A DNA stretch of 64,000 nt from assembly GCA_963709345.1 (NCBI GenBank), contig CAVPVX010000004.1:256001-320000 (forward strand). The letters are read 5' to 3'. Positions 53,624 to 60,913 of the stretch are shown here, in pieces. This DNA is from an uncultured Actinomycetes bacterium (lineage in GTDB: Bacteria; Actinomycetota; Thermoleophilia; UBA2241). Under the pieces are notes generated by a model. It was given only the letters and a program-made list of their open reading frames with translations. It did not search any database and was not told the origin of the DNA. The position numbers and the translations under genes are program-made. Each line of letters begins with the position of its first letter. The first letter of the stretch is position 1.

Positions 53624-54510
53624 GGCCGGCCGGCCGGCGGCTCGCCGCCGTCTTCAACGCGCACTCCGGCGGCGGAGGGTATCAGCGCGACATCCCGCTG
53701 ATCTTCGAGGCGCTGCGTGGTCTGGGGTACGAGGTGGAGGAGCGCGAGACGCAGGGGCCCGGCGATGCCACGCGGCTCGCCCGCGAAGCCGTCGCCGACG
53801 GCTGCGATCTCGTCTGCGCCGTCGGCGGCGACGGCACCGTCAACGAGACTATCAACGGCTTGGCCGGGAGCGAGGTCCCCCTCGCCATCGTGCCGACCGG
53901 CACGGTCAACGTGCTCGCGATGGAGCTCGGCATACCGCTCGAGCCGCCCGACGCCGTGCGGCTCCTCGAGGCCGGCACGGTGTCCTGGATCGATCTCGGG
54001 CTCGCCGGAGAGCGCTACTTCGGGCTCATGGCCGGAGTCGGCATGGACGCCGCGGTGGTCGCGTCCCTGAACCCGACCATGAAGAAGGCCCTGAAGGAGG
54101 CGGCGTTCGCCGTTCAGGGCCTTGCCACGTACCTCACCCACGAGGAGCCGCTCATACGTGTGGCATGCGCCGAACGCGCCGTCGAAGGGTACTTCGCCGT
54201 CTTCGGCAACTCGTCCAACTACGGAGGCGCGTTCGGCATCACGCCGCTAGCCGACATGCGCGACGGGTTGCTCGACGTCTGCGTGCTCAAGGACAAGTCG
54301 TTCCTCAGCACCGTCTGGTACTGGACGGCAGCGCTCATCAACGCCCACATCAAGCACCCGAAGGTCGAGTACTTCCGCACGGAGCGCGCCATGGTCACGA
54401 CGGTCGAGGAGGGCAAGGAGGTGCTCGTGCAGACCGACGGAGAGGTCGCCGGCAAGCTGCCGCTCGAGTGTCGCGTGGTCCCGCATGCCCTGCGCGTGGT
54501 GGTGCCGTGA
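53620..54510 (+). CDS. YegS/DAGK-family lipid kinase
   Basis: GGDGTVNE, PTGTVNVLA, DGLLDV, QTDGE. Confidence 0.9.
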   Translation: MRPAGRRLAAVFNAHSGGGGYQRDIPLIFEALRGLGYEVEERETQGPGDATRLAREAVADGCDLVCAVGGDGTVNETINGLAGSEVPLAIVPTGTVNVLAMELGIPLEPPDAVRLLEAGTVSWIDLGLAGERYFGLMAGVGMDAAVVASLNPTMKKALKEAAFAVQGLATYLTHEEPLIRVACAERAVEGYFAVFGNSSNYGGAFGITPLADMRDGLLDVCVLKDKSFLSTVWYWTAALINAHIKHPKVEYFRTERAMVTTVEEGKEVLVQTDGEVAGKLPLECRVVPHALRVVVP

Positions 54511-54550
54511 GCATCGCAGGCCTTCGCCGCGGTGCGGGAGGCGAGCAGAG

Positions 54551-56005
54551 ATGAGGCCGCGTATCACGCCAGCCCCGGCGGCCGAGCTCGACGCCATTCA
54601 CGCCGCGACCCTGCGCGTGCTGGACGAGGTCGGCGTCGTCTTCCCGAGCCGCGACGCCCAAGAGCTGCTGGCGGCGGCCGGCGCTGTGGTCAACGCCAGG
54701 ACCGGTGTCGTCAGGATCCCACCACGACTCGTCGGGGAGGCGCTGGATGCGGCGCCTCGCGACGTGCTGCTCGCCGGTCGCGACGCCGCGCGCGACGTGC
54801 GCTGCGACGGCGACGAGGTGTGCCTGACGCTCGACGGCACCGGCGCGTACACGCTCGACCACCACAGCTGGGAGCGACGTACCTCGACGATGCGCGATCT
54901 CGCCGACGCCGCGCTGGTCGCCGATGCCTCGGCGGAGATCGGTGTCGTCTGGAACATCGTGAGCGCGGCCGACGCACCGGCAAACACCCAGGTCCTCGAC
55001 GAGCTCGTCGCCTGCGTGTCCCACACCGGGAAGCACGTGCAGGGGGAGGTACAGCGCGCCGCGGAGGTGCCGTACGTGCTGGACATCCTCGCCGCCGCGA
55101 GCGATGAGGGGCGCTGGCGCCCAGAGCGCCCCTTCTTCTCCATCGTGTACTGCCCGGTCCCGCCTCTTCAGCACGAGCCGGAGATGCTCGACGCAGCCCT
55201 CGCGCTGGCGCGCGCGGGCGTGCCGATGTGCGTCTACAGCATGGGCCTCGCCGGGGCGACCGCCCCGGTCACTCTTGCCGGCGCCGTCATGCAGGCGAAC
55301 GCGGAGATCCTCAGCTCCATCGTCCTCTTCCAGCTCGCGCGTCCGGGTCTGGGCTGCATCTACGTCGCCGACACCGGCGTGCTCGACATGCACGCCGGCG
55401 TGTACGCCGCCGCCTCACCGGAGTCGGTGCTCATCACCCAGGCGATGGCCGGTCTGGCCCGCCGCTACGAGCTCCCCATGATGGCGACGGGCTTCACCGG
55501 CGACGCCAACGAGTTCTCGTGGATGAGCGGGAGCGACGCCGGGATGACGGGTCTGGCCGCGGCGCTCATGGACCCGGACCTGCTCTGCGGCGCCGGCATG
55601 CACGACGGCGCCCAGATGCTCTCGCTGCCCAAGATCCTGCTGGACTGCGAGCTCTTCCGCCAGTGCGTCAGGGTGCGCGCGGGGCTTACGGTCGACGAGG
55701 AGCACCTGATGACCGATGTCGTCGCGAACGTCGGACCGGGCGGCCACTTCCTCAAGGCGCGGGAGACGCGCCGGTTCCTGCGTGCCGGCGAGCTGTTCAG
55801 CCCGCGGTTGCAGCTGCGCGAACCGTTCGAGGCGTGGAGTGCCGAGCGGCCGGAGGGGGTCCGGAGCTCGGCCGAAGTGGACCGCGCGGTCGCGGCCGTC
55901 GAGGAGATCCTCGCGACCCATCGCCCCAAGCCGCTGCCGCCGGGGGCGAGCGACCGTATCGCCGGCGTCCTCGCGGCTGCACGCCGCGACCTGGACGCTC
56001 GCTGA
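54551..56005 (+). CDS. Trimethylamine methyltransferase (MttB) superfamily, non-pyrrolysine
   Basis: IHAATLRVLDEVGV, GATAPVTLAGAVMQANAEIL, GAGMHD, VGPGGHFL. No in-frame amber codon. Confidence 0.88.
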   Translation: MRPRITPAPAAELDAIHAATLRVLDEVGVVFPSRDAQELLAAAGAVVNARTGVVRIPPRLVGEALDAAPRDVLLAGRDAARDVRCDGDEVCLTLDGTGAYTLDHHSWERRTSTMRDLADAALVADASAEIGVVWNIVSAADAPANTQVLDELVACVSHTGKHVQGEVQRAAEVPYVLDILAAASDEGRWRPERPFFSIVYCPVPPLQHEPEMLDAALALARAGVPMCVYSMGLAGATAPVTLAGAVMQANAEILSSIVLFQLARPGLGCIYVADTGVLDMHAGVYAAASPESVLITQAMAGLARRYELPMMATGFTGDANEFSWMSGSDAGMTGLAAALMDPDLLCGAGMHDGAQMLSLPKILLDCELFRQCVRVRAGLTVDEEHLMTDVVANVGPGGHFLKARETRRFLRAGELFSPRLQLREPFEAWSAERPEGVRSSAEVDRAVAAVEEILATHRPKPLPPGASDRIAGVLAAARRDLDAR

Positions 56006-56006
56006 C

Positions 56007-56600
56007 CTACAGGCCCATCACCTGGGCCAGCGCGCGGAGGCGCTCCGCGTATTCCTTTCGCGCCTTGGGGTCCCGGCCCTGGAGCTCCGCCGGTTCGGCG
56101 ACCGGGACGATCTTGAAGGCCGGGTTGTCGAAGAGCCGGAGCTCGAGGGAGTCGCCGGGGGCGTAGGGCGGGTTCTTGAAGAGCTTGCCGAGGAGGAAGC
56201 GTGTCGTCGGTTCGCCGACCGTGAGCACGTAGTGCGGCGTGGTGATCGTGAGTTCCCGCGAGAGATACGGGTAGCAGGCTTCGAGCTCGTCGTCTGTGGG
56301 GTCGCGCAGGGCGTCGCCGCCGCGCGGGACGCACTTGACGAGCGTCGTCGTGTAGACCTGCTCACGGCTCTCTGCAAGCGCCGGCATGAACTCGGCCAGC
56401 GCTTCGACCGTGGCCTGGCCGGCGACCCGGCCCTCGTCTTCGTCGGCCGGGTCGGGGGCGAGCGAGACGACCATCACCGAGCAGTGCGGGTGACCACCTC
56501 CGGGGACGGCGCGGAGCCGGCTTGCCGCCAGTCCCTCGCAGCGGGTGCACCCGCCGACGCTCCGCGCCAGTTTGTCCAGTTGTTCGATCGCGTCTTCCAT
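56007..56600 (-). CDS. Family-4 uracil-DNA glycosylase homologue, catalytically degenerate
   Basis: CTRC...VPGGG...VKCVP...RDPTDDELEACYPYL retained; GEAPG, PFVG, Asn and HP motifs replaced. Confidence 0.75.
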   Translation of the reverse strand: MEDAIEQLDKLARSVGGCTRCEGLAASRLRAVPGGGHPHCSVMVVSLAPDPADEDEGRVAGQATVEALAEFMPALAESREQVYTTTLVKCVPRGGDALRDPTDDELEACYPYLSRELTITTPHYVLTVGEPTTRFLLGKLFKNPPYAPGDSLELRLFDNPAFKIVPVAEPAELQGRDPKARKEYAERLRALAQVMGL

Positions 56601-56646
56601 GAAGGCCTCTCTCTCGTCGAGCCGGCCGGCGGCGCCGGCCGGGAGG

Positions 56647-56988
56647 TCAGGCGTCGGGCTTGATGAGGCGGTAGTCGCAGGTGAGGGCGTTGTGCAGGCC
56701 TACGAGCACGAGCAGCAGCTCGCTGCCGAACGGCGCCAGCACCACGCTGAGATCGTCGAAGTCGACCGAGATGTACCGGGCCTCTGGCCGGGCGAGCTCG
56801 GCGGCCAGTTGCGCGCCGATGTCGATGACGCCGGCCACCTGTGCGGCGACGGCGTCCGCGGCGAACCCGGCGTCGGCGTCGGAGGCCACGACGAAGCCGT
56901 CGCGGGAGATCAGCAGCGCAGCGAGGATGCCGGGGGTCTCGCGGTACGGCGCGAGCTGTGCGGCGAGGGTGTCGGCCTTGTCGTTCAC
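56647..56988 (-). CDS. Roadblock/LC7 (MglB-like) protein
   Basis: PGILAALLISRDGFVVAS...ADAVAAQ...YISVDFDD...LLLVLVG. Confidence 0.85.
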   Translation of the reverse strand: MNDKADTLAAQLAPYRETPGILAALLISRDGFVVASDADAGFAADAVAAQVAGVIDIGAQLAAELARPEARYISVDFDDLSVVLAPFGSELLLVLVGLHNALTCDYRLIKPDA

Positions 56989-57284
56989 GGCGCCTCCAGA
57001 GCGGTCTCGAGTTGGGCGCGCACGGCACCGGCGAACGCCGCCGCCGCGGCCGCGTCGGAGAAGACGCGGGTAAGGCCGTCGCGTGAACCGGCCATCTCGC
57101 TGAGGAAGATGCCGGCGCGGGGCAGCGGAGAGCCGTCGGCGTCTGGGAGCGCCCGGTCGAGGGGCAAGTGGATCAGCGTGTCGCCATTCACGAACAACCG
57201 GCTAGTCTCGCGCCCCGACAGGCGCACCCGGACGCGCACGACCACGCCTTCGGGCGATTGCTGGTTGGCGATGTCGATTTCCAC
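56985..57284 (-). CDS. Hypothetical 99-aa protein
   Basis: TAGGCT lies 6 nt before GTG; GTGA overlap with the roadblock gene; coding-like composition. Confidence 0.7.
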   Translation of the reverse strand: MEIDIANQQSPEGVVVRVRVRLSGRETSRLFVNGDTLIHLPLDRALPDADGSPLPRAGIFLSEMAGSRDGLTRVFSDAAAAAAFAGAVRAQLETALEAP

Positions 57285-57345
57285 AGGAGCAGCCTAACGA
57301 GGCGCGTGTGCGGTGGCAAGACGCGGGCCTTGGCGGCCCGCCGGC

Positions 57346-58389
57346 TCACAAGGCGGCTGCGAGTGGCAGCGGCGGCCGCGCAGGCGGGGCGTCGTCGGTC
57401 GCGCGGCCGGCCTCGCTCTGCGCGGTCGCCAGTAGATCCTCGAGACGTCGCACCGTGGGGAAGGAGGAGGCGCCGGTGGCCAGCGTCTGCCGGCGCCCCG
57501 CGATGAGGCTCGCGCCGACGTCGTGAGCCAGCCGCGCGGCCGTCTCCCGGGCCTCGCCGAGCGGACAGCCGGGCAGCACGAGGACGAGGCTGTCGGGTCC
57601 CGTCCTGAAGGCGCGGCCGTCGGCGCAGAGCCGCCGCTCCGCGCGCCTGGCCACGGCGCGAACCAGCTCTTCGCTTCCCTGCGCGCCGAGGAAGTCGCGG
57701 CTGTCGCGGTAGTGCTCCAGCCGGACGTACACCACGCTCAGGGGGAGGTGCTCCGCCAGCGCCGTCGCCATGCTCCGCTCCAAGTGGTCGGGAAGGCAGG
57801 CCGTCGTCCACAAGCCGGTGCTCACGTCGACCTTCGCGGCGTGTGGCGCTCTGCGAGCAGGTCGCCGCTTGAGGCGGGTCGCTGCCAGCGAGCCGCCGGC
57901 GACCAGGACCCCGATCTTGGCGACGCCCCCGGCGCGGCTGCCGCCGAGGGAGGGATCCGCGATCGCGAGCACGATGAGTAGCGCGAGCGCGGGTCCGAGG
58001 AGGTACGGCCACTCGCCGCGCGCGGCGCCGGCCAGCTGGCCCATGGCGAGCAGTGGGATGGCGCCGAGAAGCCAGCTGTCGGCGCCGCCGGAGAGCGCGA
58101 GGACGAGGCCGAGAAGGAGCCAGTCGGCGACCACGAACGAGTGCGCGAGGTCGGAGCCCCGAGTCAGCGACACGCGGATCGAGGTGAAGCCGGCAAGGGC
58201 GCCGAGCGCGGCCGGGACCGCCGCCGCGCGGTGTCCCAGCGCCAGCGCCGCGACGGTGAGCACGAGGAAGAAGAGAGTGCGGTATCTGGCCCGCAGGAGC
58301 GCCGGGTCGCGGCGTCTGCGAGGCGGGCGCCTCACCGGGGCGCCGTCCGGATCATGCGTGGCGGGGTGTGCGTGCGCTGCATGCCGCAC
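57346..58389 (-). CDS. Membrane protein with degenerate GGDEF domain
   Basis: TM region with SGGADS, then DVSTGLWT, PLSVVYVRLEHYRDSRDFLG, RTGPDSLVLVLPG in place of GGDEF. Confidence 0.78.
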   Translation of the reverse strand: MRHAAHAHPATHDPDGAPVRRPPRRRRDPALLRARYRTLFFLVLTVAALALGHRAAAVPAALGALAGFTSIRVSLTRGSDLAHSFVVADWLLLGLVLALSGGADSWLLGAIPLLAMGQLAGAARGEWPYLLGPALALLIVLAIADPSLGGSRAGGVAKIGVLVAGGSLAATRLKRRPARRAPHAAKVDVSTGLWTTACLPDHLERSMATALAEHLPLSVVYVRLEHYRDSRDFLGAQGSEELVRAVARRAERRLCADGRAFRTGPDSLVLVLPGCPLGEARETAARLAHDVGASLIAGRRQTLATGASSFPTVRRLEDLLATAQSEAGRATDDAPPARPPLPLAAAL

Positions 58390-58526
58390 CTATTCTGACT
58401 CCCCCGCTCCAATCCTTCAAGGTCAAGTCAAGGGTTTGGGTTGGTAGAAGGACCGCGCCGGTGGGCCGCTGTCGGAATCGGGGCACGGCTGGCGCCGCCG
58501 CCGGCGTCGGCTATAATCGGTGCCCC

Positions 58527-60323
58527 GTGGACCGCACGCTCTTCTTCTCCGGCAACGAAGCGATCGCTCATGGTGCCGTGCGCGCCGGAGCCGCCTTCGC
58601 CTGCGGTTATCCGGGTACCCCGTCCACCGAGATCGTCGAGACCGCCGCGCGCCTCGACGGCATCCACGCCGAGTGGTGCGCCAACGAGAAGGTCGCGCTT
58701 GAGACCGCCGTGGGAGCGTCGCTGGCCGGCGTCCGCAGCATCGTCACGATGAAGCACGTGGGCCTGAACGTCGCCGCCGACCCCTTCATGACGCTGTCGC
58801 TCACCGGGGTCAATGCCGGGCTCGTCGTCGTCACCGCCGACGACCCGGGCATGCATTCCTCGCAGAACGAGCAGGACAGCCGGCACTACGCGCGGTTCGC
58901 CAAGGTACCGATGCTTGAACCGTCGGACAGCCAGGAGGCCTACGACTTCGTTGCCGAGGCTCTTTCCCTCTCGGAGGAGTTCGACACGCCCGTGCTGTTG
59001 CGCTCGACGACGCGTCTCTCGCACGGCCGTGGCCAGGTGATCCCGCGGGTGCCGGTCAACGTCGAGCCGCGCGAGTACGAGCGCGACATCGGCAAGTACG
59101 TCATGGTGCCGGAATACGCGCGCCGGAGGAACCGACTCGTGCTCGACCGGCTGGAACAGCTTCGCCGACGCGCCGAGGAGAGCTCGCTCAACGTGCTGGA
59201 GGCCGGCACCTCCGACTTCGGCATCATCGCATCGGGTGTGGCGTACGAGTACGCTCGCGAGGCGTTCCCGAAGGCGTGGTTCCTCAAGCTGGGGCTCTCC
59301 CACCCGTTTCCGTATGCCAAGGTGGTGAGGCTGTACGAACACGTGGCGCGAGTCGCCGTGGTCGAGGAGCTCGACCCCTTCTTCGAGGACCAGGTCCGTG
59401 CGCTCGGCGTGCCGGTAATAGGCAAGGCCGTGATCCCGGCCGACGGCGAGCTCGATCAGGACATCGTGTTCCGGGCGCTCGAACCCTACGTGCTGCGCAA
59501 GCCGCCGCCGCGGCGGCGGCCGGTGCTGCCGCCCGCACCGCGCATCTCCGAGCCGCCCGCGCCGCCGCCCGCGCTGCCGGTCCGCCCGCCCGTGCTGTGC
59601 GCCGGCTGCGCGCACCGTGCTGTGTACGCGTCGCTGCGACGTCGGGAGCTCGCGCCCTTGGGTGACATCGGCTGCTACACGTTGGGCGCCCTGCCGCCGC
59701 TCCACGCGCTCGACACCTGTCTGTGCATGGGCGCCAGCGTGGGGATGATGGCCGGCTTCAACAAGGCGCTGGGGAGCAAGCGCGCCGTCGCCGTCATCGG
59801 CGACTCCACCTTCTTTCACTCCGGCATCCCGTCGCTGATCGACGCGCACTACAATGAGGTCGAGGGCATGGTCGTCGTCCTCGACAATCGCACGACGGCG
59901 ATGACCGGTCACCAGGGGCACCCCGGCACCGGGTCGCACGCCGACCGCAGCCGGGGGCCGGCGGTCGACATCCGGAAGTTGTGCGACGGCATCGGCGTGC
60001 GTTGCGTGACCGTCGACGCGACCGACTACCGGGCGCTCGACTCAGCGATCGGGCGAGAGGCGGACGCGCCGGGGCTCGGCGTCGTCGTCGCGGCTGCATC
60101 CTGCGCGCTGACGGTGAGCGAGAAGCCCGGCGAGGTCGTGGTGGACGAGGAGCGCTGCAACTTGTGCGGCGCGTGCCTCGATCTCGGCTGTCCGGCGCTT
60201 GCGCCCGGAGAGACCGCGATGATCTTCGTCGAGTCGTGCACCGGGTGCGGGCTCTGCATCGAGGCGTGCCGGCGCGGCGCCCTGAGCTACGCCGGCTCCG
60301 CCGGGGCGGAGGGCGCCTCGTGA
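58527..60323 (+). CDS. iorA: Indolepyruvate:ferredoxin oxidoreductase alpha subunit
   Basis: SGNEAIA, GYPGTPSTE, KHVGLNVAAD, SSQNEQD, GDIGCY, GDSTFFHSG, TTAMTGHQ, two ferredoxin motifs. Confidence 0.95.
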   Translation: MDRTLFFSGNEAIAHGAVRAGAAFACGYPGTPSTEIVETAARLDGIHAEWCANEKVALETAVGASLAGVRSIVTMKHVGLNVAADPFMTLSLTGVNAGLVVVTADDPGMHSSQNEQDSRHYARFAKVPMLEPSDSQEAYDFVAEALSLSEEFDTPVLLRSTTRLSHGRGQVIPRVPVNVEPREYERDIGKYVMVPEYARRRNRLVLDRLEQLRRRAEESSLNVLEAGTSDFGIIASGVAYEYAREAFPKAWFLKLGLSHPFPYAKVVRLYEHVARVAVVEELDPFFEDQVRALGVPVIGKAVIPADGELDQDIVFRALEPYVLRKPPPRRRPVLPPAPRISEPPAPPPALPVRPPVLCAGCAHRAVYASLRRRELAPLGDIGCYTLGALPPLHALDTCLCMGASVGMMAGFNKALGSKRAVAVIGDSTFFHSGIPSLIDAHYNEVEGMVVVLDNRTTAMTGHQGHPGTGSHADRSRGPAVDIRKLCDGIGVRCVTVDATDYRALDSAIGREADAPGLGVVVAAASCALTVSEKPGEVVVDEERCNLCGACLDLGCPALAPGETAMIFVESCTGCGLCIEACRRGALSYAGSAGAEGAS

Positions 60324-60913
60324 ACGGCGCCACGACGGTCTCGCTGGTCGGCGTCGGCGGTCAAGGCATCCTGCTGGCCGCCGCCATCCTCTCCGAGACC
60401 GCCGCCGCCGAGGGCTTCGAGGTCAAGGCCAGCGAGGTCAAGGGTATGGCGCAGCGAGGTGGGAGCGTGCTGAGCACGGTGCGCTTCGGGGAACACGTGT
60501 GGTCGCCCGTGTCGCGCCGTGCCGATCTCGTCGTCGCCATGGAACTTCTCGAGGGCATCCGCGCCCTCGAGCTTCTCGGCCCTCGAGGCACGCTGGTCTG
60601 CGCGCACACCACGCGCATCGCGCCGGGGAGCGTGCTGCGTCGCGAGGAGGAGTACCCGGACGACGTGGAGTCGGCGGCGGAGTTGCGCGGCGTGCGCCTG
60701 CTCGCCGTCGACGCCGAGGCGCTGGCTCGCGAGGCGGGCACGCTTCGCGCCGTCAACGTCGCCTTGCTCGGAGTGGCGAGCACGATGCTGCCCTTCAGCC
60801 GGGAGTCCTGGAATCGCGGACTCGAGGCAGCGGTGCCGGCGAAGATCCTGGCAGTCAATGAACGGGCGTTCACGCTGGGCCGGGACGCCGTCGTCGAGGA
60901 GGTCGAGGAGTGA
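60320..60913 (+). CDS. iorB: Indolepyruvate:ferredoxin oxidoreductase beta subunit
   Basis: GVGGQG, GMAQRGGSV, NVALLG, NERAF. Confidence 0.93.
   Translation: MNGATTVSLVGVGGQGILLAAAILSETAAAEGFEVKASEVKGMAQRGGSVLSTVRFGEHVWSPVSRRADLVVAMELLEGIRALELLGPRGTLVCAHTTRIAPGSVLRREEEYPDDVESAAELRGVRLLAVDAEALAREAGTLRAVNVALLGVASTMLPFSRESWNRGLEAAVPAKILAVNERAFTLGRDAVVEEVEE

Follow-up and report, generated by a model that had tools for sequence, protein, structure and literature searches.

The 64,000-nucleotide (nt) stretch of DNA analyzed here (hereafter the window; positions 256,001 to 320,000 of contig CAVPVX010000004.1, assembly GCA_963709345.1, an uncultured member of the Thermoleophilia) carries a compact three-gene operon on its minus strand. 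In order of transcription, its genes encode a 99-amino-acid (aa) protein of a previously undescribed family, which we call unk99 (56985–57284), a 113-aa Roadblock/LC7 protein of the MglB family (56647–56988), and UDGl, a 197-aa paralogue of the family-4 uracil-DNA glycosylases (UDGs; 56007–56600). The first two genes start with GTG and the third with ATG; the unk99 stop and the Roadblock start overlap by 4 nt (GTGA), and 46 nt separate the Roadblock gene from UDGl. An earlier note, made from the sequence alone, had described three co-oriented genes with this overlap and this gap, preceded by a TAGGCT box 6 nt before GTG 57284, and inspection of the sequence confirmed each of these features. 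Carriers of the operon are uncultured actinobacteria of soil and sludge. We interpret it, with moderate confidence, as a two-layer leaderless operon of one Thermoleophilia family, in which an old unk99-Roadblock module tied to MglA stands together with a UDG-derived pseudo-enzyme.

The promoter of the operon consists of the TAGGCT −10 box (57291–57296, minus strand), placed 6 nt ahead of GTG 57284, and a −35 box read from the sequence as TTGCCA (57314–57319, minus strand), 17 nt upstream of the −10 and absent from the earlier note's description. Ahead of GTG 57284 there is neither a Shine-Dalgarno sequence nor an alternative in-frame start for unk99. That the operon has its own promoter, as the note had claimed, is borne out by the related loci with a placeable start, all 54 of which have the layout TTGnnn-N17/18-TAnnnT-N6/7-start, with a −10-to-start spacing of 6 nt in 44 loci and 7 nt in 10. 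The same layout was seen by eye in 20 of 20 loci of the window's genus, and the loci from other genera (L137–L140) have the −10 box and start in four of four cases, with a matching −35 box in L137, L139 and L140 and none at matching spacing in L138. Because the promoter-to-start layout is common to all 54 loci, a leaderless transcript is well supported as a prediction for the operon.

The gap between the Roadblock gene and UDGl ranges from 13 to 78 nt across the related loci and always contains a Shine-Dalgarno sequence, which in the window is AGAGG (56606–56610, minus strand). It follows a GC hairpin (56622–56642, minus strand; minimum free energy (MFE) −25.8 kcal/mol, z −1.9) that has counterparts in most related loci, though not in all. 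We considered this hairpin as a conserved RNA element and rejected it, with covariation in one of six pairs and no hairpin where the gap is 13–24 nt. In the MFE fold of window positions 56601–56649 (minus strand), GAGG of the UDGl Shine-Dalgarno sequence is base-paired, at the foot of the hairpin, with CCUC from just past the Roadblock stop; such a pairing, seen in the window alone, would couple UDGl translation to ribosomes finishing the Roadblock gene.

UDGl clearly belongs to the UDG superfamily, matching the Pfam UDG family (PF03167) with 52.2 bits (cut-off 24.3), and it scores 78.2 bits with the NCBIfam family-4 model TIGR00758, under that model's cut-off of 125.3. A phmmer search of the Protein Data Bank (PDB) returned the family-4 UDG of Sulfolobus tokodaii (4zbx, E 1.5e-21), the Thermus enzyme (1ui0, E 1.1e-11) and entries for UdgX, and a search of the ESM Atlas gave ordinary UDG clusters only. 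The AlphaFold2 model (predicted local distance difference test, pLDDT, 83.5) has the alpha/beta UDG fold, with Foldseek template modelling (TM) scores of 0.73–0.77 against 4zbx, 4zby, 1ui0 and 1l9g. Compared with the solved family-4 enzymes 4zbx, 1ui0 and 1l9g, UDGl thus has the same fold and length, significant sequence similarity, and four cysteines at the ligand positions of the [4Fe-4S] cluster (C18, C21, C90 and C109, which align with the cluster cysteines of 1ui0).

Where it departs from these enzymes is the active site. Alignment to solved family-4 UDGs and UdgX places S46-L47-A48-P49-D50 at motif A (GE(A/G)PG) and GRVAGQ at GRPFVG, so that the stacking Phe is gone; the Asn of ITN/VTN is replaced by T86, the Asn of PPQN (PPxNR) coincides with an insertion of three residues ahead of R99, and motif B (HP) has become E169-P170 within EPAELQG, replacing the leaving-group His. 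The available text of PMC10359453 describes roles in UDG for motif A, for motif B (HPS(S/A)(L/V)(L/V)R) and for N91 and H178, and that of PMC5387724 does so for H155 and N89. The earlier note had listed the retained cysteines and the changes to SLAPD, RVAG, TTT and EP, and residue alignment to the solved enzymes agrees with it on every one. As all residues that recognise or activate uracil are lost, UDGl should not excise uracil. Elsewhere in the window's genome lies an intact UDG4 paralogue (PF03167, 120.5 bits) with the motifs GEAPG, GRPFVG, IANV and FHPAAAL, to which uracil excision would be left.

Across the orthologues, 20 of them from the window's genus, the positions of the former pocket are not merely non-canonical but variable: the motif A equivalents include SLAPD, SLGPD, SLASD, ALHTD and APCPS among others, the Asn position holds T, A or S, and the motif-B His position holds E, A, T, D, S or P. 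The four cysteines, by comparison, are invariant in 19 genus sequences and in seven aligned family sequences, five of them from other genera, and those five divergent members show the same pocket losses. Only the window's genus has a fifth cysteine (GHPHC). In a family sample of 80 genomes, 74 carry UDGl (E <= 1e-30), with all 11 genera represented, and the median ratio of nonsynonymous to synonymous substitution rates (dN/dS) was 0.29 (pairwise Nei-Gojobori, 190 pairs), below the value of 1 that the note had set as a check. Because the losses occur in 11 of 11 genera, dN/dS is 0.29 and an intact paralogue exists elsewhere, UDGl is, on sequence grounds, an old pseudo-glycosylase under selection and not a case of recent decay, the alternative that the note had raised.

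Such strong purifying selection would also be expected if UDGl were still an enzyme, a glycosylase (for DNA or otherwise) that had gained a new specificity through a rebuilt pocket, and whose co-transcription with the other two genes was incidental. New motifs at G.PH (36–39), TPH (121–123), P160 and F162 are invariant or nearly so among the orthologues, which also keep P49 of motif A, P170 of motif B, K89, R93 and R99, and UDGl survives without unk99 and the Roadblock gene in one genome discussed below (G427). The UDG superfamily has moreover changed specificity repeatedly, UdgX being an example in the available text of PMC4787834 and PMC10359453. We nevertheless regard a retained glycosylase as unlikely, given that the base-pocket positions vary between orthologues, where a new pocket under conservation should have kept them constant.

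The other layer of the operon is the unk99-Roadblock pair. The Roadblock protein matches Robl_LC7 (PF03259) with 39.8 bits (cut-off 23), and its closest solved relative is 7f8m (E 3.1e-11), an entry on which a literature search found nothing relevant. For unk99 there was no Pfam, NCBIfam or PADLOC match, a profile search of PDB sequences gave 0 matches, and ESM Atlas matches were to unnamed clusters only. Its AlphaFold2 model (pLDDT 86.5) is alpha/beta; the best Foldseek match in the PDB had an E-value of 1.5, and the best VIA-align match a Z of 5.0 among generic alpha/beta matches, although a missing fold match does not make the unk99 fold new. No relation to the Roadblock profile was detectable by hhalign (probability 0.1). 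Judged by these comparisons of sequence, unk99 is a new, unnamed domain family. Both members of the pair are under purifying selection, with dN/dS of 0.33 for the Roadblock gene and 0.32 for unk99.

A profile search of 1.84 billion representatives with unk99 yielded 46 clusters, and among 26 representatives examined, five (P0252, P0261, P0263, P0273 and P0281) are fusions of an unk99-like N-terminus to a Pfam Roadblock C-terminus; further fused clusters, with 63–91% identity, come from several sources. As the two proteins form one polypeptide in some organisms, we infer that unk99 and the Roadblock protein form a heteromer where they are encoded separately. Gene order outside the family points to the same partnership. 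Within the class, three genomes of a sister family have a Roadblock gene directly after the unk99 homologue, and so do 35 of the 35 metagenome loci (40 in all) that were long enough. UDGl is missing from the flanks of all 40 metagenome loci and all three sister-family loci. The conserved unit is therefore unk99 plus Roadblock, and UDGl is a family-specific, separable addition. The earlier note had proposed an undescribed signalling module of three parts with the UDG copy as an integral member: an undescribed module does exist, but its core is unk99 and the Roadblock protein, and the integral role of the UDG copy did not survive the finding that sister lineages have the pair without UDGl and one genome has UDGl without the pair.

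Of 26 long loci from the sister and metagenome lineages, 25 have the pair next after mnmG-rsmG-parA-parB, and the other one is truncated. This position may point to a connection with chromosome partitioning or with the origin region. The parAB locus of the window's genome has no unk99-Roadblock pair. A SIMPL/DUF541 gene often stands between parB and the pair, and CobO or RlmN is often found downstream (L092 4750–5393; L094 6372–7226; L096–L135).

Within the family of the window, all three genes generally travel together. Their order, whose conservation the note had proposed checking, is kept in 20 of 20 genus loci, and a set of 60 further species-representative loci, all from uncultured Thermoleophilia or Actinomycetota metagenome-assembled genomes (MAGs), agrees, with UDGl found in 60, the Roadblock gene in 59, unk99 in 58 and an upstream GGDEF-like gene in 58. 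UDGl lies within ~1.1 kb of unk99 on the same contig in 23 of the 24 family genomes with unk99; the exception is G440, where they sit at two contig ends.

This persistent arrangement is one argument for treating the three proteins as one signalling module, with UDGl as an Fe-S sensor (of redox state, O2 or NO) or a DNA sensor acting via an unk99-Roadblock adaptor, probably on MglA. The short gap within the operon, the window's fold joining the UDGl Shine-Dalgarno sequence to bases after the Roadblock stop, and the invariance of the four UDGl cysteines across 11 genera would all fit. The absence of UDGl from every pair locus outside the family and its retention alone in G427 tell against such a module. 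Furthermore, the Fe-S clusters of family-4 UDGs are usually regarded as structural; a purely structural cluster would preserve the cysteines just as well, and their retention is therefore no demonstration of sensing. The acidity of UDGl (median isoelectric point 5.1) is weakly against general DNA binding, and we dropped it as an argument, the core of the canonical paralogue being acidic too (5.85). A predicted complex of unk99 and the Roadblock protein with UDGl as partner scored 0.00; it gave no verdict and was not used. Overall, we consider a three-part sensory module distinctly unlikely.

Turning to MglA, we compared its distribution with that of unk99 in a class sample of 151 genomes (150 relatives plus G000, the genome of the window; the family counts leave G000 out). 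By family, unk99 was found in 23 of 25 genomes of f1, 20 of 25 of f4 and 0 of 24 of f6, and MglA in 24 of 25, 22 of 25 and 22 of 24, respectively; other families had neither. Of the 44 genomes holding unk99, 43 also have MglA. In G000 itself, MglA (192 aa) is encoded on another contig beside an MglB-type Roadblock protein of 184 aa, with a divergently transcribed DUF4388 gene adjoining the two; the three genes together span G000:C2 ~19.8–21.7 kb (L086 745–2680). The GTPase is a true MglA, matching that of Myxococcus (6hjh) at E 3.7e-70. The earlier note's remark that no GTPase is present holds for the locus, since tblastn with the genome's own MglA found no match below E = 8 in the 64-kb window, but it fails for the genome as a whole.

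An informative exception is G427 (98% complete, in a single contig), which has no unk99, no MglA and no Roadblock domain and keeps the GGDEF-like gene directly followed by UDGl; this adjacency without the pair is seen at L068/L141. Two other exceptions to the general pattern look technical, as the Roadblock gene of G479 stands beside UDGl on a short contig and G434 is a 170-contig assembly. The phyletic pattern thus links the pair with MglA and sets UDGl apart from the pair, a result that we grade as suggestive because the sampled genomes are kin, giving few independent co-occurrence events, and because G427 is a reduced genome in which many losses may have come at once.

Taken together, these results are best accommodated by the two-layer reading. 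In the first layer, unk99 (~100 aa) and the Roadblock protein, with no GTPase adjacent, would form a heteromeric complex that acts on the MglA/MglB switch, encoded at a different locus, as an accessory regulator or adaptor. The second layer would be a UDG4 paralogue turned pseudo-enzyme that kept its fold and its [4Fe-4S] ligands and may now act as an Fe-S-containing binding or scaffold protein, probably co-transcribed and so co-expressed with the pair in this family, and not strictly dependent on it.

Besides the relatedness of the genomes and the reduction of G427, several observations weigh against this reading. MglA occurs without unk99 in family f6 and genus g257, G434 holds unk99 with no MglA detected, and G427 keeps UDGl without the pair. 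The GC hairpin between the Roadblock gene and UDGl could be a terminator, and the invariant TPH (121–123), P160 and F162 of UDGl could build a different active site. UDGl is split over two frames in several MAG loci (L075, L084, G008 and G017); because adjoining genes are split there as well, the breaks in L075 and L084 suggest assembly indels. Lastly, synteny across the family extends equally to the genes that flank the operon, iorBA to one side and dagK and PHP to the other, so that conserved order is not in itself evidence of UDGl working with the pair.

The gene upstream of the operon encodes a membrane protein with a degenerate GGDEF domain (57346–58389, minus strand; PF00990, 44.2 bits). 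In the consensus of 52 aligned orthologues, RLEH takes the place of the metal-binding DxD and AFRxxxD that of RxGGDEF, the window's protein having AFRTGPDSL at the latter site, and it therefore lacks both the GG(D/E)EF signature and the metal-binding Asp of a diguanylate cyclase. The gene is separately terminated by a hairpin (57323–57341, minus strand; −17.3 kcal/mol). That UDGl is the partner of this protein, in a membrane-anchored pseudo-enzyme scaffold into which the pair was inserted later, is highly improbable: the GGDEF-like gene adjoins the cluster in 58 of 60 loci and in three loci of other family genera, its signature is degenerate in the orthologue consensus, and its adjacency to UDGl is what survives in L068/L141, but it ends in a hairpin ahead of an operon with its own promoter, and the equal synteny of the iorBA genes means that inheritance alone explains the adjacency.

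Among the remaining neighbors, an MttB-family methyltransferase gene (54485–56005, plus strand) converges on UDGl and is present in 27 of the 60 related loci; almost every locus has dagK and PHP beyond this spot, at which the MttB-family gene is repeatedly gained or lost. Divergent from the GGDEF-like gene are iorA (with thiamine pyrophosphate and 4Fe-4S domains) and then iorB, encoding an indolepyruvate:ferredoxin oxidoreductase-like enzyme (58368–60913, plus strand), in a position kept across the family. One MAG (G016) carries the whole syntenic cluster twice, on contigs C23 and C24 (L029 and L046), with 74–78% identity to the window, which is more suggestive of two strains binned together than of a duplication. 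A PADLOC run on four proteins gave 0 matches, and hence no pointer to a known defence system.

With respect to known systems, the available text of Wuichet and Sogaard-Andersen 2014 (PMC4316618) counts 328 of 749 MglB homologues as orphans and describes a small, all-orphan actinobacterial clade without conservon genes beside it. Like those orphans, the Roadblock gene here is encoded away from any mglA. By the definition in that text of a coupled MglA-MglB pair, which places mglA within four genes of the Roadblock gene, it is not coupled, as MglA lies on another contig beside a different Roadblock gene. It differs from those orphans in having a fixed partner of a new family, to which it is sometimes fused, and in sharing its genome with a coupled MglA-MglB pair. 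The Myxococcus proteins MglC and RomY, as presented in the available text of PMC9481161 and PMC12719032, follow the same logic, an extra Roadblock-type or small modulator of MglA/MglB being encoded apart from mglA; the likeness seen is in logic only, and the hosts here are actinobacteria, not myxobacteria. Conservons (CvnA-D), as described in the available text of PMC13343842 and PMC4316618, are likewise actinobacterial operons that combine a Roadblock protein with a protein of unknown function. By contrast, the window's operon has no histidine kinase, DUF742 protein or GTPase in it or beside it, its neighbors encoding the GGDEF-like protein, the MttB-family protein, DAGK and IorA, and its unknown partner is of another family.

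Searches of the literature found no description of the UDGl clade, the unk99 family or the operon, in a coverage that leaves out most subscription journals, and a search joining roadblock with uracil-DNA glycosylase gave other senses of "roadblock" among the matches listed. We see the operon as a variation on known kinds, an orphan Roadblock module and a UDG-superfamily pseudo-enzyme, and the unk99 family as new.

The available text of PMC4316618 presents no orphan MglB homologue as characterised as of 2014. Orphan Roadblock/MglB proteins make up nearly half of their family, and a fixed partner, sometimes fused, together with a clear phyletic tie to MglA turns the function of one such orphan into a concrete hypothesis. 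UDGl, for its part, offers a natural case of a repair enzyme turned pseudo-enzyme with its Fe-S ligands kept, and could help to separate a structural from a sensory role of the cluster. Both points concern uncultured organisms, and the work would have to be heterologous. A bolder proposal is that a [4Fe-4S] glycosylase fold without catalysis supplies redox- or DNA-state input to the MglA switch via the two-protein Roadblock adaptor, whose genes in sister lineages come directly behind parAB. We regard it as very doubtful; if true, it would mean that a Ras-like polarity module is tied to chromosome or redox status in actinobacteria that are not models of motility.

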